Origin: Escherichia virus fEg-Eco19
DNA: 45,805 nucleotides
Sequence record: NC_073314.1
Direction: 5' to 3' (one strand)
Part shown: piece after piece, positions 69 through 45,717 of the stretch
How the letters are laid out: every line of letters starts with the position of its first letter
How positions within the stretch are numbered: the first letter of the stretch is position 1
Made by a program: the position numbers and the translations under genes
Notes under the pieces: generated by a model
Told to the model about the DNA's origin: nothing
Database searches by the model: none
Seen by the model: the letters and a program-made list of their open reading frames with translations, nothing else

Positions 69-97
69 TTGCACACTAAGATATAATAGGCTACTAT
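69..97 (+). promoter_or_regulatory. sigma70-like promoter (TTGCAC-N17-TACTAT) with AATAG-N4-CTATT palindrome over the -10
   Basis: Read directly: TTGCAC, 17-nt spacer actaagatataataggc, TACTAT; ~30 nt upstream of ORF 129..653. Same architecture recurs near 10641-10669(-), 21039-21067(-), 44695-44723(+). Confidence 0.4.
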
Positions 98-128
98 TCA
101 TTTACACAAACGAGAGGAGAGACAGAAG

Positions 129-653
129 ATGAGTAACAAAAACGAAGTATTCGAGTACCTGATTGACCAGCTACGGCAGCAGGTAACTAGCAACCGGTGC
201 GAAGACCTGGCGCACGAGGTGTTGTCACTCAAGAATCAGTTACGTGATGCGTCGGCGCTGGTGGCTGAGTTACAGAAAGAACTTGATATCGCCAATAGCA
301 CCGTCGTTCGTTTGCGTAAAGAGATAGCTAAGTCTACCGGTGACATTGGAGAATACATCGATGCCACGGAGCAATCTGGTTGCCATAAGGAAGATACTCA
401 GTACAACGCCTGGAGGCCGCATTATGGTGCACGACAACCTGTTCCGGATGGGACTATGGTATTTATCCGGTATCGCAACGGGGAGGAGCCAAAACACAGT
501 GTAGCAGCGGAAAAGCGGTCGTGGATTTGGGATGGAACATACGCAGACATAGTGGAATACAAGATTGACACACAGGAATGTGAACATGACTATCGTTTGG
601 TTCTGTGGTGTAGCGACTTACAGCAGTGCTCTAAATGCGGGGAGATCAAATGA
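129..653 (+). CDS. hypothetical protein, N-terminal coiled coil, Cys/His-rich C-terminus
   Basis: 174-aa ORF with ATG start and GAGAGGAGAG RBS-like stretch upstream; no recognisable catalytic motif. Confidence 0.5.
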   Translation: MSNKNEVFEYLIDQLRQQVTSNRCEDLAHEVLSLKNQLRDASALVAELQKELDIANSTVVRLRKEIAKSTGDIGEYIDATEQSGCHKEDTQYNAWRPHYGARQPVPDGTMVFIRYRNGEEPKHSVAAEKRSWIWDGTYADIVEYKIDTQECEHDYRLVLWCSDLQQCSKCGEIK

Positions 654-3272: not shown

Positions 3273-3293
3273 TCTATTTTCGGTAATGACTAG

Positions 3294-3322
3294 TTGACTA
3301 TTACCACCGACCCTATTATATT
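3294..3322 (+). promoter_or_regulatory. sigma70-like promoter TTGACT-N17-TATATT
   Basis: Read directly; ~40 nt upstream of ORF 3363. Confidence 0.45.
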
Positions 3323-5751: not shown

Positions 5752-6998
5752 GTATTCAGTTATCTGCCCCGCAGGCGCTGTTCCTGAATTGCGATAACAA
5801 ATACAAAGCCTACGTCGGCGGCTTCGGCAGCGGAAAGACATTTGTCGGCTGTCTCGACCTGCTTACGTTCATGCTCAAGCACCCTGGTACGCGCCTCGGA
5901 TACTTCGGCCCAACATATCCGGCTATCCGTGACATCTTCTACCCAACATTCGAGGAAGCGGCTAATTTACTCGGTCTCGATGTGCTGGTTAAATCCGGCG
6001 ACAAAGAAGTCGTGGTTACCCGCGGTAAGACGGTGCTCGGGACTGTTATCTGCCGCTCGATGGATAACCCCGGTTCTATCGTCGGCTTCAAAATCGCCGC
6101 TGCGGTCGTTGATGAACTGGACGTATTGAGCCGTGAAAAAGCTGAACTGGCGTGGAACAAAATCGTCGCCCGTATGCGTCTTGTTATCCCTGGCGTAATT
6201 AACCACATCTCTGTCACCACGACGCCAGAAGGGTTCAAGTTCGTTTACTCCAAGTTCAAAGAGAATCCGACACCGAGTTACTCAATGGTGCAGGCCTCCA
6301 CACACGAGAACGCGCGATTCCTGCCGCCGGATTACATTAGCTCGCTGACCGAGACTTACCCAGCGCAACTGATTAACGCGTACCTGAATGGGGAGTTCGT
6401 TAACCTGACATCCGGCAGCGTCTACTACGCCTACGACCGACGTAAGCATCGCAGCAAAGAGACAATCCAACCGGGCGACACGCTGTACATCGGGCAGGAC
6501 TTCAACGTTACGAAGAACGCCAGCGCTGTGTATGTGCAACGTAAAGACGGCTGGCACGCGGTAGCAGAACTTAAGGGCCTGTTCGATACGCCAGATACCG
6601 TGCGTGTGATTACCGAGAAGTGGAAGTCGCAAGGCCACCGCATCGTCGTTTACCCGGACGCCAGCGGCAAGAACCGCAAAACCAACTCGGCATCAATCTC
6701 CGATATCGCCTTACTACAGCAGGCCGGTTTTGATGTTCGCGCTAAATCCGCCAACCCACCGGTTAAAGACCGTGTTTTAGCCGTGAATACCGCGCTGGAA
6801 AAAGGTAAGCTGTGGGTTAACGACCGCTTATGCCCTGAGATAGCGAAGACACTGGAGCAGCAGGCATATGATGATAACGGAGAGCCTGCTAAAGACGGTG
6901 TCATTGACCATATGGCGGATGCTCTCGGCTATCCTGTAGTTTATGAGATGCCGGTGGTTAAGCCAGTAATCAACATCCCGGTGACTTTCGCACTTTAA
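5748..6998 (+). CDS. terL: terminase large subunit
   Basis: Walker A GGFGSGKTF near N-terminus; 416 aa; followed by portal. Confidence 0.8.
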   Translation: MSIQLSAPQALFLNCDNKYKAYVGGFGSGKTFVGCLDLLTFMLKHPGTRLGYFGPTYPAIRDIFYPTFEEAANLLGLDVLVKSGDKEVVVTRGKTVLGTVICRSMDNPGSIVGFKIAAAVVDELDVLSREKAELAWNKIVARMRLVIPGVINHISVTTTPEGFKFVYSKFKENPTPSYSMVQASTHENARFLPPDYISSLTETYPAQLINAYLNGEFVNLTSGSVYYAYDRRKHRSKETIQPGDTLYIGQDFNVTKNASAVYVQRKDGWHAVAELKGLFDTPDTVRVITEKWKSQGHRIVVYPDASGKNRKTNSASISDIALLQQAGFDVRAKSANPPVKDRVLAVNTALEKGKLWVNDRLCPEIAKTLEQQAYDDNGEPAKDGVIDHMADALGYPVVYEMPVVKPVINIPVTFAL

Positions 6999-9605: not shown

Positions 9606-10066
9606 TGATGGGCTTTTTCAAAGTAACCGATGTACCCGCGCGCCGCGTAGTCCAGTACGCCCGCGTGTCCGGCTCCGGCGAGAACGTGGTGTTTATTGAA
9701 GATGAGAGTGTACTTGGTACACCTGTAGACGATATGCCGTTTGCAGACAAGACCGGTATTGCACTACCCGCCGCGGGGATGCTTTACGAGATTCCGTATC
9801 TGGCAGATGCTGGTGATGTGTATTTCTCTGTGCAACCGAAAGACACGGAACTGGTAGACGGCAGCGCAACTATCACTGTCGAAGTTAAGGCAGGCAAAGC
9901 GCCATACGCGCTGACCTGGTACAAAGACGGTAAGGAAGTTGTAAACGCACCAGAAGAGGCTTTGTCGCTGACGGTTAATGCCGTAGGTGAATACTTCGTT
10001 AAAGTTACTGATGCTGATGGGGCAGAGGCGGTAAGCAAGGCGGCGAAGGTTACTAAGCCAGAATGA
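9605..10066 (+). CDS. Ig-like domain structural protein
   Basis: ALTWYKDGKEV...GEYFVKVTDADG resembles bacterial Ig-like fold. Confidence 0.4.
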   Translation: MMGFFKVTDVPARRVVQYARVSGSGENVVFIEDESVLGTPVDDMPFADKTGIALPAAGMLYEIPYLADAGDVYFSVQPKDTELVDGSATITVEVKAGKAPYALTWYKDGKEVVNAPEEALSLTVNAVGEYFVKVTDADGAEAVSKAAKVTKPE

Positions 10067-10069
10067 TAA

Positions 10070-10090
10070 AAGGCCCCGAAAGGGGCCTTA
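10070..10090. terminator. bidirectional hairpin terminator
   Basis: AAGGCCCC-gaaa-GGGGCCTT between convergent ORFs 9605..10066(+) and 10094..10615(-). Confidence 0.5.
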
Positions 10091-10093
10091 GCT

Positions 10094-10615
10094 TTATTTA
10101 AATCGCGCAGGCATTAACACCATAAAGGCCGTGTTTGAAAATAGTATTTTGCATCCTCTGGTTTGGTCCTGGAAATCGAAACGAGCAATTTCATTTTTGT
10201 ATGCCTTAGAAATCTTGTACGCGTCTGCCAAATAGCGCAGAGTGAACCCTATACTATCGACAACACCCGGTGTGATGTGCGCCACGCGTCTCCAGTCAGG
10301 AAAGTTTCCTTCTACAACATCTACCGGAAGTGTACATATAAGCGCACGATTATCGTCATAGAAAGATACACTGCCGTTGTCGTGGTCTACCTCTGCGTAG
10401 TTAAATTTAGAAGGCTCTCTCCCTTTGATGTTTATGAGAGTCCCTTTCTCAACGTTGGTCTTCACATTGTCGCAGAACAATCTATGACCGTCCGTAGACA
10501 CTATCAATCCTTCAGGGTCTATGTAAAAAGCGTTCAAATAGTGGCGAACATCATTTTTAGCCCTGCATATTTTCGCCCCTACATACGCAGGGAAAGTAAT
10601 TACTGTAGTAACCAT
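10094..10615 (-). CDS. hypothetical protein, opposite-strand accessory gene in head module
   Basis: 173-aa ORF with AGGAGA RBS; visibly AT-richer than flanking head genes; own promoter. Confidence 0.55.
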   Translation of the reverse strand: MVTTVITFPAYVGAKICRAKNDVRHYLNAFYIDPEGLIVSTDGHRLFCDNVKTNVEKGTLINIKGREPSKFNYAEVDHDNGSVSFYDDNRALICTLPVDVVEGNFPDWRRVAHITPGVVDSIGFTLRYLADAYKISKAYKNEIARFDFQDQTRGCKILFSNTAFMVLMPARFK

Positions 10616-10640: not shown

Positions 10641-10669
10641 GAATAGTACCCTATTATATTGGGGTGTGC
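10641..10669 (-). promoter_or_regulatory. sigma70-like promoter (TTGCAC-N17-TACTAT class) with AATAG-N4-CTATT palindrome
   Basis: Reverse complement reads TTGCACaccccaatataatagggTACTAT; ~30 nt upstream of the ATG at 10615. Confidence 0.45.
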
Positions 10670-10723
10670 AAACTATTTGTTTACGTATTCCAGTTATTCC
10701 ACTCAATTGTAAATGTTGGAATA

Positions 10724-10766
10724 AACTATTCGAATAGTTGACTTTTCACTGAAAATATGATAAGCT
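10724..10766 (+). promoter_or_regulatory. 16-bp perfect palindrome AACTATTCGAATAGTT abutting a TTGACT-N17-TAAGCT promoter
   Basis: Read directly from sequence. Confidence 0.35.
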
Positions 10767-10772
10767 CCACCT

Positions 10773-10973
10773 GAGCTTGTGAAGTATGAACAAGCGACCG
10801 CGGCGCGGGCAGGTAACGGAGCGGGACGTAAGTCCTGAGTGTAGTTACGCTGACGCGTTCGGAAGGGCCATACTCTATTGCTTGTGTAAAAAGTAACTGG
10901 TTTACTGAGATTACGCCGTTTCTATGTTTAAATGATAAGGACTAGCGCCCCGCTTTAAGGCGGGGCTTTACTT
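10773..10973 (+). ncRNA. candidate small non-coding RNA (promoter to terminator, no ORF over 36 codons)
   Basis: GC-rich ~200 nt between promoter at ~10738-10766 and terminator at ~10947-10973. Confidence 0.2.
10947..10973 (+). terminator. rho-independent terminator
   Basis: GCCCCGC-tttaag-GCGGGGC followed by TTTACTT. Confidence 0.5.
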
Positions 10974-10990
10974 ATCGAGAAAGGGGAAAC

Positions 10991-20997: not shown

Positions 20998-21038
20998 GGG
21001 GTAGCTCCTGTTTGAGTTAACATTGTTGGTGTAAGTGA

Positions 21039-21067
21039 ATAGTACCCTATTATATTGGGGTGTGCAA
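21039..21067 (-). promoter_or_regulatory. sigma70-like promoter (TTGCAC-N17-TACTAT class) with AATAG-N4-CTATT palindrome
   Basis: Near-identical to the 10641-10669 element (shared run GAATAGTACCCTATTATATTGGGGTGTGCAA). Confidence 0.45.
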
Positions 21068-31875: not shown

Positions 31876-33296
31876 TTCTTACTCCTACGTTTCATATACT
31901 CAAGGAGGATATCCTGCACCTGTTTTTTCTCGTCTGTGCGTGAAGTGACAACAGAATCCAACGTATCTTTAGCAATAATCTTGTAGATAAAAACAGGGCG
32001 ATTATACCCCGATTGCTTTTGCCGTACTGGCCCTATGCGCTCTACAACCTGTAAATAGTGTTCGAGGTTCCACCCCTGACTGAAAAATGCCATATGATGG
32101 CCGCCGTCTTGTAGCGATATGCCGTGCCCGGCTGACGCGGGGTGCACGCATAAGATTTCGATTTCACCGCGGTTCCACGCTTCCATCTGCTTATTGCCCT
32201 TCGCACCTTTGGCGAACGCCTGTGCCTGAGGGAATCGCTTAAGGATACGCTCAAGTTCGTGCTTAAACTGATAAGCTACCAGTAACGGTGCACCCTGTAG
32301 CTCCTCCACAATCGACTCTAGCGCATCCAGTTTCGTGTCGTGCACTTTCTCCCATTCTTTGGTTGCTTCACCGTCCGGCCCTGATACATACACAGCACCA
32401 GATGCAATCTGTAAACACTTCGACGTCTTTGCTGCCGCGTTAGCCGCTTCAACTTCTCCGCTCTCAAGTTCCGCGAATAACTTTTCCTCCATATCGATGT
32501 ACGCCTGGCGCGCCTTCTTCGGCAGGTCGATTTCAACAGGGACGATAACGGGCGCTTCGCAGCCAAACCACTCGGCAGCGTCAATCGTGAGACTGATGTC
32601 CTTCATCTTCTGGTGAATTTCATTATCCGCGCCAGGGCGCGCATGATACTCACGTGCCATAGCCGATTTGCCTTTCTGGACAGAGTTAAACCATCGGTCG
32701 GTGAATGCCGTGTATGAAGAACCGAGGCGCTCGCCAGCGTCGATAAACCAGTTCTGACCCCACAAGTCTTTGAGGCCGTTCGGTGACGGCGTTCCCGTCA
32801 GGTTGATGAAACGCTTAACCTTACCGAATGCCACTTTACTAAGCGCCTTTGCCCGCTTGCTGCCACCTGAACGGCTACGGAAAGATTTCAGTTTCGTGCT
32901 TTCATCGGCAACAATAACCGTAAAAGGCCAGTCGTCTTTGCCGTAATAGTCAATAAGCCACTCGATAACTTCGTAGTTTGTACAGACCACATTAGCGTCT
33001 GACTCCAGCGCCGCGATGCGGCGCTTCTCCGAACCAGTTGCATCTACGACGCGCAGACAAGGGAAGTTCCAACGTGCCTGTTCCGCGGGCCACGTACCGG
33101 ATGCAACACGTAAAGGAGCCAGAATTAATACCCGGTCGTAGTCCGTAAGTTGGCCGTTGCGGAACAGTCGGTTGAGAACCCACAACGTTGACCCCGACTT
33201 GCCGCTGCCCATCGAAGCCCAAATATTACAGCGAGGGTGCTGCAACATGAACGAAGTCATGAGCTTTTGGTACTCCCTGCGGGTAAATTTAGCCAT
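31872..33296 (-). CDS. SNF2-family (superfamily 2) helicase
   Basis: Walker A MGSGKSGS, motif II VIVADESTKLK, C-terminal QVVERIGPVRQ. Confidence 0.65.
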   Translation of the reverse strand: MAKFTRREYQKLMTSFMLQHPRCNIWASMGSGKSGSTLWVLNRLFRNGQLTDYDRVLILAPLRVASGTWPAEQARWNFPCLRVVDATGSEKRRIAALESDANVVCTNYEVIEWLIDYYGKDDWPFTVIVADESTKLKSFRSRSGGSKRAKALSKVAFGKVKRFINLTGTPSPNGLKDLWGQNWFIDAGERLGSSYTAFTDRWFNSVQKGKSAMAREYHARPGADNEIHQKMKDISLTIDAAEWFGCEAPVIVPVEIDLPKKARQAYIDMEEKLFAELESGEVEAANAAAKTSKCLQIASGAVYVSGPDGEATKEWEKVHDTKLDALESIVEELQGAPLLVAYQFKHELERILKRFPQAQAFAKGAKGNKQMEAWNRGEIEILCVHPASAGHGISLQDGGHHMAFFSQGWNLEHYLQVVERIGPVRQKQSGYNRPVFIYKIIAKDTLDSVVTSRTDEKKQVQDILLEYMKRRSKK

Positions 33297-33786
33297 TATT
33301 AACCCCGTGGTTGGTATGGAAACCGTATTCTATTTCTGCGGCTTTACGTACCGACAATGCCTCTTCGAACGTCTTAAATCTGCCTAGTTCCATAAGTATT
33401 GTTTTTACACGTATGCGCGCTCGCCAAATACCTTCTTTTATCAAAAATTCCACACCAGTTGCGCCGGTCTTATTACATGTGTACAAGCTCTTGTTCTGCA
33501 TGTTTTGTTGCGTTGTAACCTTACGTATGTTGTCCCCTCTGTTGTTAGTTTTGTCATGATCTATGTGGTCTATTTCATCGTCCGGCCCTAATAAATCATC
33601 AGGGTGTAACGTATCCCACGCTAAACGATGCGCCTGATACATCTTTCCGTCTATTTTTATCCTGACGTAGCCGTTACTTTTACTGCCGCCCGCTATGGAG
33701 CCAGCGGAACGACCTCGCGGGGCAACCACCCATGTGAAAATCCCGGTGTCTGGGTTATAGTCCAGTCTGCCGTCGAAGCATTTCAT
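33289..33786 (-). CDS. HNH homing endonuclease with AP2-like domain
   Basis: AHRLAWDTLHPDD...IDHIDHDKTNNRGDNIRKVTTQQN, then GATGVEF...AEIEYGFHTNHG. Confidence 0.75.
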   Translation of the reverse strand: MKCFDGRLDYNPDTGIFTWVVAPRGRSAGSIAGGSKSNGYVRIKIDGKMYQAHRLAWDTLHPDDLLGPDDEIDHIDHDKTNNRGDNIRKVTTQQNMQNKSLYTCNKTGATGVEFLIKEGIWRARIRVKTILMELGRFKTFEEALSVRKAAEIEYGFHTNHGVNNG

Positions 33787-33974
33787 TTTGCCACCAGAAC
33801 CAGCTCTTTACGCCCGAACGCCGTAACGTTACCCGTTACATCTTCAATAACCAGTTTACCGTTCGACTCGACGAACACCGTGTCAACGGCAACAGGACGA
33901 CGTGTTTTAACGTTGAAAATCATGTCGCCCGGTACGATGTCACGTGCTGGTTTGCGGTCATATTCGTGTTTCAT
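33783..33974 (-). CDS. small hypothetical protein
   Basis: 63-aa ORF ~25 nt downstream of promoter at ~34008-34036. Confidence 0.4.
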   Translation of the reverse strand: MKHEYDRKPARDIVPGDMIFNVKTRRPVAVDTVFVESNGKLVIEDVTGNVTAFGRKELVLVAK

Positions 33975-34004: not shown

Positions 34005-34292
34005 TTAACTATAATAGTTCGCTATTAGGTCGTCAACCTGTTTAAACGAACCGACGACAAAAACATTAGCACCACGCTTACGCATCCGCTCGTGTTCCCG
34101 TAACTGGTGTGGGTCTGGCTTCGTGTTTTCGTCTTTCTTAACCTCGACAAACCAGACGATGCCGCCAGGGAGAATTACCAGCAGGTCGGGGGCGCCTACT
34201 CTATTTTCGTACGACAATTTGCGTACGAGGCCCCCCAGGGCCTCGAATCGCTCTTTTGCGTATTTCTGGATGCGCCCCTCAGGCGTACTCAT
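34005..34292 (-). CDS. VRR-NUC domain nuclease
   Basis: GAPDLLVILPGGIVWFVEVKK...HQLREHERMRKRGANVFVV matches the PD-(D/E)XK core of VRR-NUC proteins. Confidence 0.6.
   Translation of the reverse strand: MSTPEGRIQKYAKERFEALGGLVRKLSYENRVGAPDLLVILPGGIVWFVEVKKDENTKPDPHQLREHERMRKRGANVFVVGSFKQVDDLIANYYS
34008..34036 (-). promoter_or_regulatory. sigma70 promoter TTGACG-N17-TATAGT with AATAG-N4-CTATT palindrome in spacer
   Basis: Reverse complement reads TTGACGacctaatagcgaactatTATAGT. Confidence 0.45.
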
Positions 34293-34494: not shown

Positions 34495-37400
34495 TTACTT
34501 AGCATAGCGTTTCAACTCCGCACCTTCCGCTACAAGAGGGAAGCCTTCTGCCCACTCCGGCAACGCGCACATTAATTTCTCCAGTTCAGCCACCGTGTAC
34601 TCTGGGGTGTCCGGAGTTTCACACACCAGTTCATCGTGTACCGAAAGCACGATAGGATACCCACCACCCTCAACGTTAATCATCGCATATGCCAGTAAAT
34701 CACGGCACAGCGCCTGAACAATGTTTTCACAGGCTTTGCCGCCGTGTGTGTATAGAGTTGTCCATTGGCGGGTTAACTGGTTTTCACCCTGATACTTGAT
34801 TCGCACATTCGTGTTCATCCGTCCGTCTTCGTCTGTTTCCTTTGTCACGCTAACGCCGATTCCCGGATACGAGAGGATACGGCCCGACGGCAACTCCATA
34901 CACAACCACCAACCAGGAACCTTCCTGCCGGATGAATCAAATTCTACAGTACGCCATATGCGGATAGCCCTTTCCCCATTCCTGCGCAAGTGTGCCCCCG
35001 CCCAAAATTCACGACCGGGATTACGAACAGCAGCTAAAATTCCGTCTTTAAGGTCGCGCCAGAACGCTACTGTTTCCGGGTGTGACTCGCGCCACATACG
35101 CTTGATTGCGTCACATGTGCGCCACACTTTCTTATCAAGAATATACGATGGTCGGTCATCCTTTTCACCCGGATGCGGTGGTCGCTTGGCTTCCTGAATA
35201 CGCGCCCACTCATACCCACGCGCGGTAGCAGCCCAGATGTGGTCGGGGAAAGTCCCGTCCATTGTTTTTGCCATCTCAATAAGGTCAAGACCTAAGTTTT
35301 TAGCGAACGTAACGAATGCTCCGACGCCGCCTTCGTATCCGAGTCCAAGCTCGCAGTTATGCGCCACAAGAAAGCCAGAGTCGGAAGCGATAAGAAAACG
35401 GTTGCCGTCTTCCACATCAATCAGGTCGTACACTGGCTCGCAGTAGGTTAATTTCCCGTTCAAGCTCAGCAATGCGGGCAACGGCTGCATCATACTTTCG
35501 TTGAAGCTCAGGTATTCGCCGTCTGTTACGGCAGTTTTCAGAACGGCTGACAAACCGAATGTTTCCAGGTTCGTAGTTACCGTCTGTGTCGATTCTATCC
35601 ATTTCGAGGTTCGGGTCATCCCAGCCTTCCAGAGTTTGAACATATCTAAGAAAAGACCTTTTATCAGTCCTCCACTGGTCAAATACCGTGATGCCTCTTG
35701 CCCCATAGTTTTTATAACCCTTATCCCTGGGGCTTGTTGTCCGCGTGATTGCCGCGGACAGCCGGTTGAGTAATCGCGTTCTGTGCACATCATCCGGCAT
35801 TGCGTCTTCGTAGCAGAAATATTGTTTACGATATTTTTTTGTTGCTTCAAGGGCGCAACGGTTGCATTGAGTGGTTTTACCTGCTCTGACATTGTCATAA
35901 TAGACCCGCCCCGGCATCTCTCCGCAATCACATTGGACGAGTAGTTGTCTTTGGCCTTGTCGTTTTGGTAACTCGCGCAGGATAACCAGGCGTCCATACC
36001 TATCTCCAGGGCGCGGTCCATCATATATTTGTTTGAAACGAGTTGCTTTGCCTGCTTCCAGGAATGCGTCAAGATTTTGTGGTCTTCGGTCATTAGCACC
36101 CCGTCCACATTTATCACCGGTTTCCACCCCATAAGGTGCGCGCCTTTTGTATTCACCCATTTTTCGCCACTCCATACTTTATCTGTCGATGTGACCGCCA
36201 TAATATCCTTAAATCCGCCATAGGTCAAAACTTGGGTATGGCGGTGAAGGCAGGCTTTACCAATCTGGCGTAAGTCTTTGCGTTCTTTCTTAATGTAATC
36301 CGGCTCCATACCAAACATCTTACCCGCGGTTACGCAGTAAATATCCAACCCGGCGCGGAACGTATCGAGCGCGGTTTCTTCACCAGCCAGCCACGCAAGC
36401 CCTCGGCCTTCAACGTTAGAGTAATCGGCAACAACAAACTTATGTCCGGCTTCCGGTATGATGCAGCTACGAACGGTCGATGCCGTTAGCTTGGCCACAT
36501 CGAAACGGCGATGGGCGCGACCCTTAAGTAACGCCGAAATGCCTTTATCCAGCTCATCATCGTGATAGTAACCGCGTGCCAGGTTCTGCGGCTGGAAGCC
36601 TTTACCAGCCCATCGCAGAGTACGTTTTGCCCCACCGTACTGCAAGCAACCACGACGGCGGTCGTCGGACGAGCGGCCTAACAGCAATGGGTTATATTTC
36701 GTTGACGCGGTAGACGCGGCCCCGAGGCGCATTTCGATAATCGCGCGAGCGTCGTCTGGTAAATCATCATCCGAAAGCAGGTCATTAAGCGTCGACTTCT
36801 GCGCATTGTGGATGCGGTGCGCTGGGGCAAGCTCACGCAGAATCGGCAGAAAGTCCTTACCAGTAAGCGAGCCGCCGTATTTGCGTTGGGCTTCTTCCTG
36901 CAACCGTGCCTTGTGCTTCTCCACAGCTTCAATCGCGGCTTCTGCCAGGGCAACGTCAACCTTAAACCCGCGGTCGTTGATTAACTGGTCCAGTTCCAGT
37001 ACACGGTCTTCGAACTCGGAGTTACCCCACCGCGGCAGCTTATGGAAGACTTCACGCATTGCGGTGATGTCACTCACGGCGTATTTGATGAACAGTACCC
37101 ACTCGTCCGGGTGTGTTTCAGCGGTGTAGCGACGGATTTTGTAGTTCTTCGGCGTCGGTTTAGAGAAACGCTGAATCAGCGCCTTGCCTCGTTTGTCTTT
37201 CGCGTTGTCTGCTGACACGCCCAGCACTTCGCACAACGCATCGAGGGAACCCGGCAGCGCGTGACGAAACGCCCAAATCATCGTATCAATGGTGTTGCCT
37301 ACAGGAATATCAAAGTCCCAGCAGTGTTTCATGATGAGCCTATCGAACATTGAGCCGTTGTGCCATACCATCTTGATGCGACTGTTCGGCTTAACCAGAC

Positions 37401-37593
37401 GGCGTAGAGCGCGGTGTAAATCACCCGGCATGTCGCTGCCGTCGGTGCAATCCCATACCTGCACAGGCTCGTCGTCAAAGGCATAGGTACAGATGAGCAC
37501 TTCGGTTGACGGGTGTTCGGCGTAAGCGTAGGAGCCGACTTTCTTCAAATCGGCTTCGGAGAATGTTTCAAAGTCCAGGTATAAGTAGCTCAT
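34495..37593 (-). CDS. family A DNA polymerase with 3'-5' exonuclease domain, interrupted by an intein in motif B
   Basis: Exo motif LYLDFETFS, motif A VVADYSNVEGRGLAWLAGEE, motif B split as RQIGKA | intein | CELGLGYEGG; likely start is the internal ATG (MSYLYLDFET) with AAGGA RBS, track ORF starts at an upstream TTG. Confidence 0.85.
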   Translation of the reverse strand: MSYLYLDFETFSEADLKKVGSYAYAEHPSTEVLICTYAFDDEPVQVWDCTDGSDMPGDLHRALRRLVKPNSRIKMVWHNGSMFDRLIMKHCWDFDIPVGNTIDTMIWAFRHALPGSLDALCEVLGVSADNAKDKRGKALIQRFSKPTPKNYKIRRYTAETHPDEWVLFIKYAVSDITAMREVFHKLPRWGNSEFEDRVLELDQLINDRGFKVDVALAEAAIEAVEKHKARLQEEAQRKYGGSLTGKDFLPILRELAPAHRIHNAQKSTLNDLLSDDDLPDDARAIIEMRLGAASTASTKYNPLLLGRSSDDRRRGCLQYGGAKRTLRWAGKGFQPQNLARGYYHDDELDKGISALLKGRAHRRFDVAKLTASTVRSCIIPEAGHKFVVADYSNVEGRGLAWLAGEETALDTFRAGLDIYCVTAGKMFGMEPDYIKKERKDLRQIGKACLHRHTQVLTYGGFKDIMAVTSTDKVWSGEKWVNTKGAHLMGWKPVINVDGVLMTEDHKILTHSWKQAKQLVSNKYMMDRALEIGMDAWLSCASYQNDKAKDNYSSNVIAERCRGGSIMTMSEQVKPLNATVAPLKQQKNIVNNISATKTQCRMMCTERDYSTGCPRQSRGQQAPGIRVIKTMGQEASRYLTSGGLIKGLFLDMFKLWKAGMTRTSKWIESTQTVTTNLETFGLSAVLKTAVTDGEYLSFNESMMQPLPALLSLNGKLTYCEPVYDLIDVEDGNRFLIASDSGFLVAHNCELGLGYEGGVGAFVTFAKNLGLDLIEMAKTMDGTFPDHIWAATARGYEWARIQEAKRPPHPGEKDDRPSYILDKKVWRTCDAIKRMWRESHPETVAFWRDLKDGILAAVRNPGREFWAGAHLRRNGERAIRIWRTVEFDSSGRKVPGWWLCMELPSGRILSYPGIGVSVTKETDEDGRMNTNVRIKYQGENQLTRQWTTLYTHGGKACENIVQALCRDLLAYAMINVEGGGYPIVLSVHDELVCETPDTPEYTVAELEKLMCALPEWAEGFPLVAEGAELKRYAK
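35356..36252 (-). mobile_element. intein (299 codons) in DNA polymerase motif B
   Basis: Hint blocks in polymerase frame: N-terminal CLHRHT, block B LMTEDHKILT, blocks F/G VYDLIDVEDGNRFLIASDSGFLVAHN followed by Cys. Confidence 0.7.
35417..36175 (-). CDS. HNH endonuclease ORF inside the intein, in a different frame from the polymerase
   Basis: 252-codon ORF offset from polymerase frame (37647-36175=1472, not a multiple of 3); GYKNYGARGITVFDQW...EGW...DRIDTDGNYEPGNIRFVSRSENCRNRRR; shares EGW...DKD...YSP motif with 18559..19191 and 24270..24920. Confidence 0.55.
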   Translation of the reverse strand: MEWRKMGEYKRRAPYGVETGDKCGRGANDRRPQNLDAFLEAGKATRFKQIYDGPRPGDRYGRLVILRELPKRQGQRQLLVQCDCGEMPGRVYYDNVRAGKTTQCNRCALEATKKYRKQYFCYEDAMPDDVHRTRLLNRLSAAITRTTSPRDKGYKNYGARGITVFDQWRTDKRSFLRYVQTLEGWDDPNLEMDRIDTDGNYEPGNIRFVSRSENCRNRRRIPELQRKYDAAVARIAELEREINLLRASVRPD

Positions 37594-37745
37594 TTCTTTT
37601 TCCTTAAATCCAGTGCCTTCGTTTCGCTTAATCTTATTTTCATACAATCACGACAAATCCACACATGTCTGTACCCGGCGCGGTACTCATCCGCGTACCA
37701 CGGAAGTGGCTTCATGTATCGGTATACGTGCTTGCAGAAAAACAT
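37590..37745 (-). CDS. small Cys-rich protein (51 aa), coupled to polymerase start
   Basis: Translated by eye (MFFCKHVYRYMKPLPWYADEYRAGYRHVWICRDCMKIRL...); stop overlaps polymerase ATG as ATGA. Confidence 0.25.
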   Translation of the reverse strand: MFFCKHVYRYMKPLPWYADEYRAGYRHVWICRDCMKIRLSETKALDLRKKK

Positions 37746-38493: not shown

Positions 38494-38522
38494 ACTATAA
38501 TAGCCAACTATTCAGGTGTCAA
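38494..38522 (-). promoter_or_regulatory. sigma70 promoter TTGACA-N17-TATAGT with AATAG-N4-CTATT palindrome in spacer
   Basis: Reverse complement reads TTGACAcctgaatagttggctatTATAGT. Confidence 0.5.
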
Positions 38523-40424: not shown

Positions 40425-40925
40425 TTATTCTTCTTCGAAATACTTGTTCTTGATTGCTGTCAGGCGTTCCAGGTACTCGGCCAGGTCTTCGTCTTTAATC
40501 GCGGCAATCTTCATCTTCTTACCGGTGAACTCTTCCAGCAGTTCATCAGAATCGTCGCACGCGGCATCGCTCGGACCTTCGTTAATTGCATCGTCGATAG
40601 CCTGAATCTGGTCACGAAGAGACTGGTAATCGACTTCTTCTTTCTCTTCTTCTGGTTCTGGCGTCGGCTCCTCTACTTTAGCTTTACGCGGCTTACGTTT
40701 TGGCTTCTCTTCTTCTGCCGGTTTAGTGTCGACGATGTCTTCACCTTCAACCGGGATTTCTTTTGTTTCTTCTTTAATACTTTCAGAGAACTGCTCAATT
40801 TTATGAGCGGCTACCGCGGCAGCCTCTTTGGCAGTAGTTGGCGCGAACTGTTTCGCACTATTCGCAGCAATCAGTTCATGTGCAACTACGAAACGTTCCA
40901 GTAATACTAAGAATTTCTCTAACAT
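40425..40925 (-). CDS. acidic coiled-coil protein, early gene
   Basis: 166 aa, Glu/Asp-rich with a central KPKRKPRKAK patch; driven by the strong promoter at ~40957-40985. Confidence 0.5.
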   Translation of the reverse strand: MLEKFLVLLERFVVAHELIAANSAKQFAPTTAKEAAAVAAHKIEQFSESIKEETKEIPVEGEDIVDTKPAEEEKPKRKPRKAKVEEPTPEPEEEKEEVDYQSLRDQIQAIDDAINEGPSDAACDDSDELLEEFTGKKMKIAAIKDEDLAEYLERLTAIKNKYFEEE

Positions 40926-41030
40926 TTGTTTCTCTCCTCTCGTTTGGTATGGGCTAACTATAATAGTGAACTATTCACATGTCAATGGGCTTTTCTAAAA
41001 TAATTAATATGGTACTATTCACATATCAAC
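40889..41030. repeat. direct repeat copy 1 (142 bp), divergent promoter/operator region
   Basis: Identical by eye to 41310..41451; contains the first 12 codons of ORF 40425..40925, TTGACA-N17-TATAGT (minus), an AATAG-N4-CTATT palindrome and a plus-strand TGgTACTAT extended -10. Confidence 0.7.
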
Positions 41031-41049: not shown

Positions 41050-41265
41050 ATGCAACCATCTGAACTAGGCATTCGTGTAGAACAACGCCGTAAAGAACTC
41101 GGCATCTCCCAGCGCCGTCTGGCGGTGCTGACCGGGGTTTCCCAGGGCGCAATTAACCAGCTGGCACTTGGGGTAACCCAGGACGTCCGCCCGGCAACGC
41201 TGTTTAAACTGGCGGAAGTGCTGGAGGTAGACGCCAAGTGGCTGGCGCTAGGTGAAGGGGCTTAA
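41050..41265 (+). CDS. Cro/CI-type (XRE family) HTH transcriptional regulator
   Basis: 71 aa; ISQRRLAVLTGVSQGAINQLALG is a canonical XRE HTH; only plus-strand gene in a minus-strand module; GGAG RBS. Confidence 0.7.
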   Translation: MQPSELGIRVEQRRKELGISQRRLAVLTGVSQGAINQLALGVTQDVRPATLFKLAEVLEVDAKWLALGEGA

Positions 41266-41280
41266 TGCCCCTTTCTTTTT
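41256..41280 (+). terminator. rho-independent terminator
   Basis: AGGGGC-ttaat-GCCCCT followed by TTCTTTTT, overlapping the cro-like stop codon. Confidence 0.6.
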
Positions 41281-41309: not shown

Positions 41310-41451
41310 CGAAACGTTCCAGTAATACTAAGAATTTCTCTAACATTTGTTTCTCTCCTCTCGTTTGGTATGGGCTAACTATAATAGTGAACTATTCACA
41401 TGTCAATGGGCTTTTCTAAAATAATTAATATGGTACTATTCACATATCAAC
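41310..41451. repeat. direct repeat copy 2 (142 bp)
   Basis: Second copy of promoter/operator region plus a 12-codon 5' fragment of ORF 40425..40925; also contains the last three codons and stop of the primase gene. Confidence 0.7.
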
Positions 41452-43611
41452 AAATCCATCCCCTATTCTTTCGGGTATACGATATGTTCTCGGTACTACT
41501 TCGCCGTTAGCATCGCAACCAAGCATTAGTTCTCCATCTTTCAACATTTTATCAAGATGGGTGTTAGTCCCAGAGAAGTCACCGGAACGAGCCACTATCT
41601 GCTGCTGAGTAAAACCACGACCTGTATCATCTGACTGTTGCAGGTCTTCCAGTGCCGAAAGTATTGACTCCTTCCTTACCTCATCCCTGCCGCGTTTAAC
41701 TTCTTCCTTTACTTTTTGTTTACCTTCGTTAGTTAGCCCTTCTTCCCGCTCTTTCTCCTCGTCAGTTTTGAACGGCTCGAAGCCCCACGGCATCAGCACA
41801 AGAGCCTTGTGCGGTTCCGGCAGGTCGAGGTTTACGATTGTACCGTATTCCTCCGTGCTGCCCAGGAACTCAACCGCGCGGTATTCTTTCGGCGGCGGGG
41901 CTTCACGGAACTGTACAGACTCCAGCACCATGCCGACAGTTTTCTGTTGAGGTCCGTGTTTGAATTTCGAGTGGTATACATTTATCTGACGGTCGGTCGC
42001 GCGTTCGATTGTCAGTTCCACATCGACGCCCGCATACAGAGCGCCACTACCACGGGCTTTCTTTCCGCCCTTCGGCGTATGGTGAACAACCCCTACCGCG
42101 GCTTTAGTCGCGTCGCGTACTTCTTTCAGGATAGCGATAACTTTGCCCATACCGATTGCCGTTGATGAACTGTTCTCGTCGAACTTATCAATCGTCAGGG
42201 CCAGGGTCTGGTTAAGTGTGTCAAACGCAACCATGCCAATTGGTTCATCGCCCGCAGTTTCACGCATTATCTTAATCAGGCTTTTCAGTTTTCCGACTTC
42301 ACCCATATCGATGACGTGTACATAATCTTTACCCTCAACGCCGTATTTAGCCGCGAGTGCATCAATACGTGTACGTGTGGCTGCGCCACCTTCACCGTCG
42401 ATATAGAAATGGTGGCAACGCTGGGTATCCGCCCCCGCAAACCGGTATCCCGCCGCGCTAAGGTACATCATCCCCAGCGTATAGAACGATTTGTACGTGC
42501 CCGATTCCCCGACAATATCCCATATGCAATCCGACGGCATGTACCCTTCAACGACGAAATCAGCCTTTACCGGTTCCGGTAGCTCGTCCTCCTCTGAGTC
42601 ATCCTCGTCTTCCAGGTCGTCCAGGCTGCAAGTTACAGGATCCTCGTTCTCTGTGCGGTGTAGTTCTTCAATCTCTTCATCCGGTAAATCAGGCAAAGCA
42701 GCACGAATGCTGTTAATGCTAATAGGTTGCTTGTCTACGTTAAGCTCGTCCGGAAGGCCGCACATACGCAGGGCCAAATGTTGTCGGCGGTTAAGCTCGG
42801 TGCAGGCACCGTTGTTCGTATGCTGGCACACGAAGCGTACTTCTTTACCGTCAAGCATGATGCTGGTGGAGCCTTTGCCAGTGTGTAGATGTTCGTTAGG
42901 ACATGGCACTTCATACCCGCGCCCGGAAGATAGAGCGTCAAGACCAAGTTCCGCTTCGCAGAAATGCGCTATATCGGCGTTAAGCCCATGCTCATCTGCA
43001 GCAAGTGTCTTAGCTTCACGTTTACGCAACCCCATCTCTTCGGCTTTCTTGATGTACCGCTCTGCACTGATAACACGCCCTTCTGTGACCGTTATCTTCG
43101 ACTCTTTGTGCGGCAGGTAGATAAGGCGGTTACCGTCTTCTGTGCAGTGGTCGCGCAGCGCTTCGTCTATTCCTAACTCTGCGCAAATAGCCCGTTGCAC
43201 CATCCACGCGTCGTTAGATTTGAACGGAGTGCGAGCCGGAACCAGAACGCGGAAGGCGTAATCCCCGTTTTTACACGTGTGCTGGTGCGACGCCGTTGTA
43301 TGCAGAATATTGAAGAACGGTGCGTTCTTGAATTTGCGGGTAAGGTCGCGGTACTGAGTACGGTTTAGATGGTCGAAGTCGAACTTAACCACACTATCTT
43401 CCAGAATCGCGTTCTTACGGCGACCACCAACAGGCGCAATTGCTTTCTGCTTAATCTTGGCCGCGTCGTACTCTTCCTTAGTCCACGACGGGTCTACAGA
43501 CAAACGCTTCGATGTATCGCAGACATACTCTACGAACTGCTCCAGCGGCATTTCACGAGCTACAGGGTTTTTATCGAACGTGTTGCGCAGCGTTGCAAAA
43601 ACAATATTCAT
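41440..43611 (-). CDS. primase-helicase (zinc-binding N-terminal region, P-loop C-terminal domain)
   Basis: Cys/His cluster CPNEHLHTGKGS...FVCQHTNNGAC; P-loop VGESGTYKSF; 723 aa in replication module. Confidence 0.55.
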   Translation of the reverse strand: MNIVFATLRNTFDKNPVAREMPLEQFVEYVCDTSKRLSVDPSWTKEEYDAAKIKQKAIAPVGGRRKNAILEDSVVKFDFDHLNRTQYRDLTRKFKNAPFFNILHTTASHQHTCKNGDYAFRVLVPARTPFKSNDAWMVQRAICAELGIDEALRDHCTEDGNRLIYLPHKESKITVTEGRVISAERYIKKAEEMGLRKREAKTLAADEHGLNADIAHFCEAELGLDALSSGRGYEVPCPNEHLHTGKGSTSIMLDGKEVRFVCQHTNNGACTELNRRQHLALRMCGLPDELNVDKQPISINSIRAALPDLPDEEIEELHRTENEDPVTCSLDDLEDEDDSEEDELPEPVKADFVVEGYMPSDCIWDIVGESGTYKSFYTLGMMYLSAAGYRFAGADTQRCHHFYIDGEGGAATRTRIDALAAKYGVEGKDYVHVIDMGEVGKLKSLIKIMRETAGDEPIGMVAFDTLNQTLALTIDKFDENSSSTAIGMGKVIAILKEVRDATKAAVGVVHHTPKGGKKARGSGALYAGVDVELTIERATDRQINVYHSKFKHGPQQKTVGMVLESVQFREAPPPKEYRAVEFLGSTEEYGTIVNLDLPEPHKALVLMPWGFEPFKTDEEKEREEGLTNEGKQKVKEEVKRGRDEVRKESILSALEDLQQSDDTGRGFTQQQIVARSGDFSGTNTHLDKMLKDGELMLGCDANGEVVPRTYRIPERIGDGFVDM

Positions 43612-43774: not shown

Positions 43775-43806
43775 GCCCCGACGTTCTTGCGTTGGGGTTT
43801 CTTTTT
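43775..43806 (+). terminator. plus-strand intrinsic terminator inside a minus-strand operon
   Basis: GCCCCGACG-ttcttg-CGTTGGGG followed by TTTCTTTTT on the plus strand. Confidence 0.35.
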
Positions 43807-44095
43807 ACCGTTTAGCCAACTCTTCCAGCAAATTTTTATACTCTTCAAAATATTCCTCGACCAAATCATCGCCGAAATAGAAGTCGATATACTCGAGATT
43901 ATCTCTTACGTTAAGCGACGCCGACATGGTGCTTAGTTGACGTAAGCTAATTAGCTTCATTTCTGTTTCTACACAGAAAGGCCGGTAGGTATCGAGGTGG
44001 CAAGAGATGTTGAAGCATAAAGCGAACTCTCCCGCCACGGAGTGAACCATATACACTTCGTTTTCTGCTTTATTGTGGAAAATTACACCTTTCAT
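43805..44095 (-). CDS. hypothetical protein
   Basis: 96-aa ORF overlapping upstream gene stop. Confidence 0.4.
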   Translation of the reverse strand: MKGVIFHNKAENEVYMVHSVAGEFALCFNISCHLDTYRPFCVETEMKLISLRQLSTMSASLNVRDNLEYIDFYFGDDLVEEYFEEYKNLLEELAKR

Positions 44096-44274
44096 TTCAC
44101 ATTCTCCTTAATCCATTCTTCAACTTTATTACGGTCAAATGTACCTGGTAAACGGCGACCCATAACCTTAATACAACAATCAGGGAATTTACCACTGCGC
44201 AACCAGTTATTAATTGTCTGACGTGTTACCCCAATACGCTCGGCTACTTCATTCTGTGTCATGTAATGCTGCAT
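44092..44274 (-). CDS. AlpA/excisionase-type HTH regulator
   Basis: Internal ATG with AGGAGA RBS; MTQNEVAERIGVTRQTINNWLRSGKFP matches AlpA-family HTH. Confidence 0.55.
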   Translation of the reverse strand: MQHYMTQNEVAERIGVTRQTINNWLRSGKFPDCCIKVMGRRLPGTFDRNKVEEWIKENVK

Positions 44275-44305
44275 TTTTATATCTCCTGTTTGTTTGGTGA
44301 AACCG

Positions 44306-44334
44306 AGTATAGGATAGCGGGAATGTAAAAGCAA
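44306..44334 (-). promoter_or_regulatory. sigma70-like promoter TTGCTT-N17-TATACT (leftward)
   Basis: Read from reverse complement; ~30 nt upstream of the AlpA-like ATG. Confidence 0.4.
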
Positions 44335-44371
44335 CCAATCCATGCTATATTTAATCTTTACAAAAAAGTTA

Positions 44372-44401
44372 TTGAAAGTTCTTGACACATGTTTGTATAA
44401 T
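44372..44401 (+). promoter_or_regulatory. sigma70-like promoter TTGAAA-N18-TATAAT (rightward)
   Basis: Read directly; divergent from the leftward promoter. Confidence 0.4.
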
Positions 44402-44407
44402 GGTTTT

Positions 44408-44629
44408 GGGACTTGTATATATTACGGAGTTGACGAACCCTCCCCGAGGGATTCGTCAACCCCTCCCAGACAGCTGAGATGCTTGTTTTAGGGTTTAAGG
44501 ATAAGTGTATCTAAATCTCATTTAAAGAAGTAACCCACTGAAATATCTACTGTTTCTTAATGTGCCGTAGATTCGCAACCGTAAAAATGTAACGATTATT
44601 GGGCAGGCCTTAAGGCCTGCCCTTTAGTT
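44408..44629 (+). ncRNA. candidate small non-coding RNA / structured leader
   Basis: Promoter at ~44372-44401, 14-bp imperfect hairpin at ~44429-44460, then strong terminator at ~44601-44629; no ORF over 10 codons. Confidence 0.25.
44601..44629 (+). terminator. rho-independent terminator
   Basis: GGGCAGGCC-ttaa-GGCCTGCCC perfect 9-bp stem followed by TTTAGTT. Confidence 0.6.
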
Positions 44630-44694
44630 ACCAAGTAATAAGAATAAAGGCACAACCCTACCTGAAGAATCACAACGGCAACGTAACTATTTTC

Positions 44695-44723
44695 TTGCAC
44701 ACCCCAACATAATAGGATACTAT
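44695..44723 (+). promoter_or_regulatory. sigma70-like promoter (TTGCAC-N17-TACTAT class) with AATAG-N4-CTATT palindrome
   Basis: TTGCACaccccaacataataggaTACTAT, ~35 nt upstream of ORF start. Confidence 0.45.
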
Positions 44724-44757
44724 TCACTTATCGAAACGAGACAGATGAGTGAGGGTT

Positions 44758-45039
44758 ATGTTTAGGAAGGGTCAGTTGGTTAAAGTAAAAGGGGGCGAAG
44801 TGATGGAAGAATTAATTTGTGTGAAAAGTAAATTAGTTGAGTTCAAACCGGGGATTTCATATTCCGGATATTCAACCTCTGATTACGATTATGTTATCGA
44901 TGAAACCGGAAGCGAATGGGTAGTTGACCAGTTCGGCGACGACGAATTCGGGGTATTCGATGGTGGGCTGAAAGCCTCATTCACAACGGCATCGAATCAT
45001 GATGCTCGTGCCGACGACTCTGAGGGAGGTTGCCGTTAA
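44758..45039 (+). CDS. hypothetical protein
   Basis: Internal ATG of track ORF 44749..45039. Confidence 0.4.
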   Translation: MFRKGQLVKVKGGEVMEELICVKSKLVEFKPGISYSGYSTSDYDYVIDETGSEWVVDQFGDDEFGVFDGGLKASFTTASNHDARADDSEGGCR

Positions 45040-45236
45040 TGAGAATTCGAATAATTGATGTCGATTATGTGCTGCCGCCGGGGTATGGTGACCATTCTTT
45101 GCGCCACTTTGGTGTTTCGGTGGGCGATGAGTTCGAGGTTACGTCCAGTAATGATTACGGATGTACAGTCAAACATTGCGGAGAGGAACTGTACGTGCGT
45201 AGACGTGAATATGTAGTTCTGGGGACTAAGTTATGA
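45039..45236 (+). CDS. small hypothetical protein (tandem paralog A)
   Basis: MRIRIIDVDY...; shares MRIRI.D....FG.SVGD.F with next ORF. Confidence 0.4.
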   Translation: MRIRIIDVDYVLPPGYGDHSLRHFGVSVGDEFEVTSSNDYGCTVKHCGEELYVRRREYVVLGTKL

Positions 45237-45388
45237 GAATCCGTATAACTGACCGCAGGCTTATAGATTTCGGTATCTCGGTAGGTGATGTTTTTCTGGC
45301 GTTCAGCAGCAACCATTATGGTTTTATGATTGAGTACAAAGGGTCGTTATTGTTCGTGTATCGGGATGAATGCGAGGTTATGGTATGA
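45233..45388 (+). CDS. small hypothetical protein (tandem paralog B)
   Basis: MRIRITDRRLIDFGISVGDVF...; ATGA overlap. Confidence 0.35.
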   Translation: MRIRITDRRLIDFGISVGDVFLAFSSNHYGFMIEYKGSLLFVYRDECEVMV

Positions 45389-45528
45389 GAGAAGCATTTG
45401 AACGTTGGGCCGTCGTCGAGGGTCTGCCGGTTTACAAGGGTTCGAAGAAAGAGTACCTGAACGTTAAGACGCGTCTCGCGTGGCGGGCGTGGAAAGCTGG
45501 TGTGCAGTATGCGATGAATACGAGGTGA
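45385..45528 (+). CDS. small hypothetical protein (47 aa)
   Basis: Translated by eye; ATGA overlap. Confidence 0.3.
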   Translation: MREAFERWAVVEGLPVYKGSKKEYLNVKTRLAWRAWKAGVQYAMNTR

Positions 45529-45531
45529 GAT

Positions 45532-45717
45532 ATGGGTAAGTGGATTAAGTGTAGTGAGTGTATGCCTAAGCCTTATGAATACGTTCTTGTAACTGATGGT
45601 TTTGTCGGCTGTGAGGTTATGCGTGTTAATTCAGATGGCTACTGGGGGCCCGCAAAGAGTTTATATCATGGTGATATCACACACTGGATGCCGTTACCAG
45701 AGCCACCAGAAGTGTGA
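45532..45717 (+). CDS. DUF551-like small phage protein
   Basis: WIKCSECMPKPYEYVLV...ITHWMPLPEPPE matches the conserved pattern of this family. Confidence 0.45.
   Translation: MGKWIKCSECMPKPYEYVLVTDGFVGCEVMRVNSDGYWGPAKSLYHGDITHWMPLPEPPEV

Follow-up and report, generated by a model that had tools for sequence, protein, structure and literature searches.

The 45,805-nucleotide sequence of Escherichia virus fEg-Eco19 (NC_073314.1; the whole stretch is hereafter called the window) contains a 14-bp palindrome, AATAG-N4-CTATT, which recurs inside the cores of sigma-70-type promoters and, judging from the sequence, is probably the operator of a repressor encoded by the phage itself, namely a 71-aa protein resembling Cro of phage 434 that would bind it as a dimer. 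We assign this reading a probability of about 0.6; the broader proposition, that the palindrome is the operator of some phage-encoded repressor, is considered likely. The 45.8-kb window corresponds to the complete or near-complete genome of a Kagunavirus-like siphophage of the subfamily Guernseyvirinae, with a gene order as in Escherichia coli phage Bas72 and a replication region 91-92% identical to those of the E. coli phages Bas72, 590B and Golestan. The plus strand carries small early genes followed by lysis, terminase, head and tail genes, and two short cassettes on the minus strand break up this series. Next comes a replication block, also on the minus strand, with genes for a helicase, a DNA polymerase, a Gp2.5-like single-stranded DNA-binding protein (SSB), an exonuclease and a helicase-primase. 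Around 480 related Kagunavirus and Jerseyvirus records are available. Guernseyvirinae relatives have been described as strictly lytic, and no CI, integrase or excisionase functions are annotated in Bas72.

The exact palindrome (AATAGNNNNCTATT) occurs eight times in the window (Table 1), against 0.01 occurrences expected from the mean of dinucleotide shuffles. Allowing up to one mismatch gave 14 sites (1.09 expected), while exactly two mismatches gave 14 sites where 18.8 were expected; the lack of excess in the latter class indicates that the motif is sharply bounded. An earlier annotation of this stretch, made from the sequence alone (the original prediction), had placed the palindrome in at least eight promoters and proposed a genome-wide scan as a check: all eight exact copies indeed lie within promoter-like sequence and none outside it, although the copies at 40962 and 41383 belong to a 142-bp repeat, so that seven sites are independent. 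Among the six one-mismatch sites, four are located in promoters (that of the cro-like gene, Pcro, counted twice through the repeat, and those of two structural operons), which accounts for the one-mismatch excess. In a PHIRE-like scan of intergenic DNA the palindrome was also the top repeated word in the window, whereas an Rfam scan of the window returned zero matches.

The sites occupy four different registers relative to the promoter hexamers. In the class A promoters (TTGACA/G-N17-TATAGT, all on the minus strand), the palindrome begins 4 nt past the -35 box and takes up the spacer, its last base being the first T of the -10 box; their hexamers score 10-11/12 with a 17-bp spacer, which identifies them by sequence as sigma-70-type. 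In the class B promoters (TTGCAC-N17-TACTAT, on both strands), it begins 10 nt past the -35 box and covers the -10 box; these hexamers score only 7/12, and the TTGCAC-17-TACTAT spacing is kept across genera. A third register is found in a Jerseyvirus cassette (TTGCAT-N7-site, -10 TATTAT), where a -35 box stands on each side of the site, and a fourth in the class D promoters (TTGACT-N17-TATATT or TTGACT-N17-TAAGCT), where the site overlaps the -35 box. Calculated from hexamer positions, the site centres fall at approximately -12.5, -15.5, -18.5 and -33.5 and are not in helical phase. Four registers that always lie over core elements fit an occluding repressor rather than a promoter element or an activator, and the 17-bp spacers argue against MerR-type activation. 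The fixed position originally ascribed to the palindrome therefore holds within each class and differs between classes. Of the coordinates given at that time, those of all four class A copies were borne out, as were those of the class B copies at 69-97, 21039-21067 and 44695-44723, while the fourth class B promoter, placed at 10641-10669, was off by 2 nt and in fact spans 10671..10643. The supposed degenerate half-site upstream of the cro-like gene turned out to be a full site with one mismatch (AATATGGTACTATT), identical in five Kagunavirus genomes.

The sites ahead of the structural operons extend the set beyond the single-regulator regulon first proposed: operator-like sequences are present in the early, replication and cassette promoters as suggested, and imperfect ones are found in structural-operon promoters as well. 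The promoter at 3294-3322 is preceded by a terminator and followed by the terminase/head operon; at the equivalent place Jerseyvirus carries AATAGTTGACTAGT, so that the single mismatch lies in the left half-site in Kagunavirus (ACTAG...CTATT) and in the right one in Jerseyvirus (AATAG...CTAGT). The promoter at 10738-10766 heads a long leader ahead of the head genes. A perfect 16-bp everted palindrome, AACTATTCGAATAGTT, with the half-sites back to back (CTATT-CG-AATAG), lies at 10723-10738, where it abuts the class D -35 box, and is kept in four Kagunavirus genomes. At 21038..21051 a possible plus-strand promoter directed toward the tail genes (TTGGTG-16-TATTAT, judged by eye) overlaps the palindrome, and in Jerseyvirus the orthologous site is flanked left and right by -35 boxes. 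The leader AAACGAGA(G)GAG is common to the sequences downstream of the promoters at 97, 40957, 41378 and 44723; in several class A and class B promoters it holds the ribosome-binding site about 15-25 nt past the -10 box, which suggests that promoter, operator and ribosome-binding site travel as one cassette.

The same sequence element, at about seven copies per genome, has been reported in PHIRE-based descriptions of related phages: in fBC-Eco01 with the consensus tgAATAGTa-ccTATTat-T, ascribed to a "phage-encoded RNA polymerase" (PMC9825357), in Golestan as seven "promoters" (PMC7203180) and in SGP-C as TAATAGTACCCTATTATGTT (PMC8790156). Our reading differs from these in that the element is taken as an operator nested in host-type promoters and has a named candidate binder. 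In those papers, where PHIRE ranks it as the top repeated 20-mer, the motif is stated or implied to serve as promoter for an RNA polymerase of the phage. We regard this view as extremely improbable, since gene content already speaks against it: the annotations of Bas72 (82 features), of the Cornellvirus-like phage SE1 and of Enterobacter phage phiEap-2 include no RNA polymerase gene. Moreover, every site lies between or over good -35 and -10 hexamers at 17-bp spacing, and the palindrome itself is directionless, yet promoters fire either way from it. Our literature search found no paper that reads the element as an operator or tests the Cro-like protein; the operator reading would thus correct a published assignment to an enzyme that these phages do not encode.

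Comparison of five Kagunavirus and two Jerseyvirus genomes revealed 5-8 exact sites in each, mostly at orthologous promoters. Among the 40 distinct site variants collected from them, the central N4, the nucleotides between the -35 box and the site, and the downstream sequence vary, while the half-sites AATAG and CTATT are exact in most orthologous promoters, the Jerseyvirus promoter of the 166-aa gene (the divergent neighbour of cro) having one mismatch. A sigma-70 spacer requires no particular sequence; the class A AATAG half-site lies inside the spacer, yet it is kept across both genera while its neighbours vary. This conservation bears on an account in which no trans-acting factor exists and the motif is a by-product of duplicated promoter cassettes or of compact, bidirectional promoters with an inverted -10-like half. 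Several features agree with such an origin: the right half-site belongs to the -10 box in several classes (TACTAT, TATTAT), the left half-site plus its flank reads TATAAT, the Jerseyvirus site mentioned above has -35 boxes on both sides, some 32 bp are common to the class B copies, which look like paralogs, and the leader AAACGAGAGGAG follows many promoters. It is nevertheless judged unlikely, because it leaves unexplained not only the conserved spacer half-site but also the four registers, the orthologous SSB promoter of SE1, which reads TTGACActgaATTATTAAACTATTATATT and has kept its -35 and -10 boxes but not AATAG, and the metagenomic lineage L144, in which both half-sites have changed symmetrically.

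Beyond these two genera, the exact motif was not found in Cornellvirus (Shemara and SE1) or in Dhillonvirus SO-1. Related forms are nonetheless enriched in more distant relatives. In phiEap-2, AATA-N6-TATT occurs eight times (0.64 expected), mostly in promoters and in registers A, B and C, and in SE1, ATTA-N6-TATT occurs seven times (0.93 expected), including the SSB and 166-aa-gene promoters. The metagenomic lineages L138, L140 and L143 contain 3-5 sites per 12 kb, while in L144 the symmetric variant AATAC-N4-GTATT occurs twice; over the four lineages the density is 2-5 sites per 8-12 kb. Given this distribution, the element is probably ancestral to Guernseyvirinae, with a core A(A/T)TA-N6-TA(A/T)T that would have been sharpened to AATAG/CTATT in Kagunavirus and Jerseyvirus. 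Its occurrence in phages of E. coli, Salmonella, Klebsiella and Enterobacter might be taken to indicate that a DNA-binding protein of the enterobacterial hosts recognises the palindrome and is exploited by the phage. However, the variants follow phage lineage, and Jerseyvirus and Cornellvirus both infect Salmonella yet carry different versions, so that the binder is more probably encoded by the phage than by the host; we also know of no E. coli regulator with an AATAG-N4-CTATT consensus, and consider a host protein very unlikely.

The best candidate for the binder, once two competing proteins had been eliminated (see below), appears from sequence to be the product of the cro-like gene, the XRE-type protein singled out by the original prediction. 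It matches the Pfam family HTH_3 (PF01381; residues 11-65, E = 2.3e-12, 47.2 bits where the gathering threshold is 23), and its closest sequences in the PDB are 434 Cro (phmmer E = 7.9e-6) and the DNA-binding domain of the 434 repressor. The AlphaFold model (predicted local distance difference test score 89) consists of five helices (residues 5-17, 21-28, 32-40, 48-57 and 62-67), with best Foldseek matches to 434 Cro (2cro/3cro) at TM-scores of 0.80-0.87 and 38-40% identity. The glutamine opening helix 3 (Q32) is invariant in eight lineages, and its counterpart in the alignment with 434 Cro is the first Gln of the sequence QQS; in the 434 complexes this residue contacts the outermost operator base. 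The gene is present in every lineage examined, always divergent from the promoter of the 166-aa gene, and its product is the sole recognised DNA-binding protein common to all motif-bearing lineages examined. All 46 Kagunavirus/Jerseyvirus loci retrieved with the Cro query carry sites, and all 49 loci of these genera retrieved via the 166-aa gene have cro at the divergent position. In addition, a CI-type homolog from IMG/VR, 45% identical to the protein, has two TAAAG-N4-CTTTA sites upstream of its own gene, and the 5+4+5 layout thus recurs within the subfamily of Cro-like proteins.

Apart from the XRE gene, only one open reading frame (ORF) in the window has a sequence-specific DNA-binding domain, an excisionase-like HTH_17 protein (approximately 44095..44274, minus strand); none of the other early ORFs has a DNA-binding Pfam domain. 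HTH_17 was taken seriously because it and the exact motif are both missing from Cornellvirus, and it is 80% identical between genera, compared with 48% for Cro. It was rejected since it is missing from ST20 (a cultured Kagunavirus), L031, L021 and phiEap-2, all of which keep sites; ST20, L031 and L021 retain Cro at 96-97% identity together with the operators, and the variant motif of Cornellvirus undercuts the shared absence. The second candidate, a 63-aa protein (33783..33974) that is 94-100% identical across Kagunavirus and Jerseyvirus, above the conservation of the DNA polymerase, was likewise set aside, being missing from phiEap-2, where the sites are kept.

It is against this background that another small phage protein has to be weighed as the binder, with Cro regulating only its own neighbourhood or something else. 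This alternative receives a low but appreciable probability from us: most early ORFs lack a recognisable domain, yet no DNA-binding signature was seen in the small proteins that phiEap-2 also encodes, the best conserved of them has a signal-peptide-like N-terminus, and the palindromic 5+4+5 geometry is that of the 434-type family. Several of the observations that weigh against Cro as the dimeric repressor of these sites are also those that would favour another protein. The recognition helix reads SQGAINQ in Kagunavirus and SQSLITH in Jerseyvirus, differing at three probable contact positions while the half-site is the same; the Cornellvirus helix (TQSAISH) is Jerseyvirus-like, yet that genus has a different, asymmetric motif variant; and comparison of recognition-helix residues with the motif across eight lineages gave no clean covariation rule. 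Thus the nomination of the XRE protein as regulator is strengthened by its fold, its divergent position and its distribution, and mildly weakened by the divergence of its recognition helix between genera. In the lineages L145 and L148, a Cro ortholog is present and the motif is scant or missing, and the many small early ORFs without a recognisable domain could still bind DNA. To this must be added that the link between Cro and the sites derives from co-occurrence, adjacency and geometry; that the flanks are conserved asymmetrically (ATAATAG ... ACTATTCA), which a symmetric dimer would not need; that a repressor acting on every promoter, the late ones included, requires the assumption of graded affinity; and that the published infection RNA-seq of Kagunavirus K1B4 has coarse time resolution and ambiguous gene numbering. 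The asymmetry of the flanks reflects a single extended orientation common to all sites, ATAATAG-nnnA-CTATTCA, relative to which transcription from class A and from class B promoters runs in opposite directions.

Some observations at the cro locus of other lineages should be mentioned here. In L148 and L151, loci of a distant lineage (IMG/VR, approximately 5900-5960), the cro-adjacent promoter is without an AATA-type site and carries another palindrome, AAAGTGCT-N5-AGCACTTT, over its -35 box, and the half AAAGTGCTTGCA is kept at the cro-adjacent promoter in most non-Kagunavirus lineages. A search of the cro intergenic region for a second operator type turned up only the conserved AAAGTGCTTGCA box and the AAAGTGCT-N5-AGCACTTT palindrome of L148. 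In the Jerseyvirus locus L067 (IMG/VR), cro (9960-10170) is frameshifted by a one-base insertion, and two exact operators are present versus four in close relatives; this could represent operator decay after the loss of cro or sequencing errors in an old record, and is not used as evidence.

Returning to Cro as the dimeric repressor, we infer that it is the binder, that its effect is repression and that graded affinity sets the timing. Cro would be expressed from Pcro, where a weak -35 box is combined with an extended -10 box, and would dimerise on the 14-bp sites with one monomer per AATAG half-site and the central 4 bp uncontacted. As the sites overlap the -10 box, the spacer or the -35 box, a bound dimer would exclude RNA polymerase. 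Accumulating Cro would then reduce transcription from the class B promoters of the early genes and the class A promoters of DNA metabolism, the perfect sites being filled first, whereas its own promoter and the two structural-operon promoters, with their conserved one-mismatch sites, would be repressed later or less. The location of the terminase-operon mismatch in opposite half-sites according to genus would fit selection for intermediate affinity.

The closest known counterpart is the 434 system, in which the operators are 14 bp long (ACAA-N6-TTGT) and the outer four bases are contacted but not the centre. Like 434 Cro, the protein has 71 aa, the five-helix HTH_3 fold and a Gln as the first residue of the recognition helix. 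Also as in 434, the operator comprises 14 bp, of which the outer bases are conserved and the central 4 bp are free to vary, it overlaps promoters so that binding would repress them, and cro is transcribed divergently from an operator-bearing promoter. Unlike 434, this phage has no CI partner, integrase or lysis-lysogeny switch, the candidate half-site is AATAG instead of ACAA, and single operators are dispersed over 7-11 promoters in four registers without a tripartite OR/OL array. The features of a lambdoid immunity region are indeed lacking: the divergent neighbour of cro is not a CI-type gene but encodes a 166-aa acidic protein without a Pfam domain, and in place of three tandem operators the 124-bp intergenic region contains one exact and one imperfect site 44 bp apart.

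Two other groups of regulators invite comparison. The C proteins of restriction-modification systems (C.AhdI and C.BclI) share the small XRE fold and are among the fold matches; they act as dimers on palindromic boxes overlapping promoters and serve as concentration-dependent timers. They are, however, less similar in sequence to the Cro-like protein than 434 Cro is, and they activate as well as repress one or two promoters of their own operon, while here many unlinked promoters would be involved and only repression is proposed. E. coli DicA has an HTH_3 N-terminal domain in common with the Cro-like protein, but it is roughly double the length, with an additional domain at the C-terminus, and belongs to a prophage immunity region. 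The name "transcriptional repressor DicA" given to this gene in GenBank records of relatives is a BLAST carry-over.

Table 1. Candidate operators in the window, the promoters that contain them, and the cro-like gene.
Feature	Position	Strand	Context
Class B promoter	69..97	+	Candidate operator over -10; ortholog kept in relatives
Exact site AATAGGCTACTATT	85..98		Inside class B promoter 69-97 (+), upstream of early gene 129..653
One-mismatch site ACTAGTTGACTATT	3289..3302		Over -35 of promoter 3294-3322 (TTGACT-N17-TATATT)
Exact site	10642..10655		Class B promoter 10671..10643 (-), which drives minus-strand cassette 10615..10094
One-mismatch site AATAGTTGACTTTT	10733..10746		Over -35 of promoter 10738-10766 (TTGACT-N17-TAAGCT, TG-extended)
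Exact site	21038..21051		Class B promoter 21067..21039 (-), which drives cassette of Imm-like gene and metallophosphatase
Exact site	34013..34026		Spacer of class A promoter 34036..34008 (-), upstream of 63-aa ORF, HNH gene and helicase
Exact site	38499..38512		Spacer of class A promoter 38522..38494 (-), upstream of Gp2.5-like SSB and DNA polymerase
Exact site	40962..40975		Spacer of class A promoter 40985..40957 (-), upstream of 166-aa ORF, divergent from cro
One-mismatch site AATATGGTACTATT	41006..41019; again 41427-41440		Over extended -10 (TGgTACTAT, 41010-41018) of cro promoter
71-aa XRE/434-Cro-like protein gene, candidate repressor	41050..41265	+	Ribosome-binding site AAGGAG; terminator 41254-41274
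Second copy of 142-bp repeat	41310..41451		Duplicate class A promoter 41406..41378, exact site 41383-41396, imperfect site 41427-41440
Exact site	44711..44724		Class B promoter 44695-44723 (+), upstream of small early genes 44749..45717

The cro-like gene is bracketed by a perfect direct repeat of 142 bp (40889-41030 = 41310-41451), the second copy of which interrupts the helicase-primase gene at its 3' end. Its last 21 codons (ending in ...RLRPKTLYEPNEMLVVTEEDLE before the stop in Bas72) are thereby replaced with GFVDM and a stop, and the acidic C-terminal tail is lost. The insertion also yields a 32-codon chimeric ORF behind the duplicate class A promoter and a duplicate cro promoter directed antisense into the helicase-primase gene. 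No one-piece alignment across the repeat junction was found in the top-ranked related records (161 records with a match). The repeat could allow deletion of cro by recombination, or it could be an assembly artefact.

The HTH_17 gene is part of a block that has been exchanged in ST20, GZMU_E2010, L031 and L021 together with the adjacent gene for a 96-aa protein and the portion of the helicase-primase gene that encodes its first ~300 residues. In the window, the block comprises 44092-44388 (minus), 43805-44095 (minus) and the 5' third of 41440-43611; in those four genomes (in ST20 at locus L087, 6954-7539) its place is taken by two ORFs, one for a 47-aa Zn-ribbon protein and one of 149 aa, and by a primase whose N-terminus has diverged. 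The joint exchange of HTH_17 with the primase domain suggests that HTH_17 is part of a replication-initiation module, and by sequence comparison the swapped block looks like a specificity module for replication initiation with at least two alleles. The 63-aa protein (minus strand; phrog_4879) is apparently beta-rich, belongs to no Pfam family and is missing from SE1 as well as phiEap-2; its gene adjoins an HNH endonuclease gene (33289-33786), and its conservation may be linked to homing. Elsewhere in the replication block, the family A DNA polymerase ORF (34495-37647, minus) encodes 1050 aa versus 726 aa in Bas72, and only a fragment (residues 389-465) matches Pfam DNA_pol_A. The polymerase of several relatives is annotated as "intein-containing DNA polymerase precursor", and the length of the ORF is consistent with an intein or other insertion.

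Two non-coding elements were also observed. The first (44372-44632) starts with a promoter on the plus strand (TTGAAA-18-TATAAT, 44372-44401), behind which lie some 225 nt without coding capacity that contain a strong hairpin (gttgacgaaccctccccgagggattcgtcaac) and a terminator (44601-44622) and have an RNA fold z-score of -4.7. This stretch, situated between the replication operon and the early promoter, has no Rfam match and may be a small RNA or a transcript associated with an origin. The second (10738-10975), which precedes the head genes, consists of the class D promoter and a non-coding leader of approximately 200 nt with a terminator at 10947-10966, its fold z-score being only -1.7. A second copy of the first ~140 nt of this element is found in L004 (36084-36227) and in ST20 (L087, 6717-6858), where it stands in for the 44372-type element beside the replication operon. 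Similar elements, annotated as "repeat regions A and B", occupy analogous positions in the record of Sodalis phage SO-1.

Promoter-embedded palindromic operators of an XRE repressor constitute an ordinary kind of circuit, of which this virulent phage would provide a further case. If the palindrome is indeed the operator of the Cro-like protein, this would account for the presence of a "repressor/DicA/Cro" gene in strictly lytic phages, an annotation on whose account a phage of this kind has been described as temperate in at least one paper. The operator variants (AATAG/CTATT, AATAC/GTATT and ATTA../..TATT) and the diverged Cro orthologs would suit a study of helix-turn-helix specificity, and lineage-specific Cro/operator pairs could serve as orthogonal repressor-operator parts. 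The reading would also provide a testable model of the temporal programme of Kagunavirus and Jerseyvirus, which are popular candidates for therapy and biocontrol. More tentatively, a CI-less, Cro-only timer may be ancestral to Guernseyvirinae, in which single operators placed in four registers inside host-type promoters, their quality tuned by selection (perfect for the early and replication genes, stably imperfect for cro itself and the structural genes), would let one concentration ramp order the lytic programme. If so, a single protein of the 434-Cro type would govern essentially every transcription unit, and the whole programme would be ordered without a phage sigma factor, RNA polymerase or activator.

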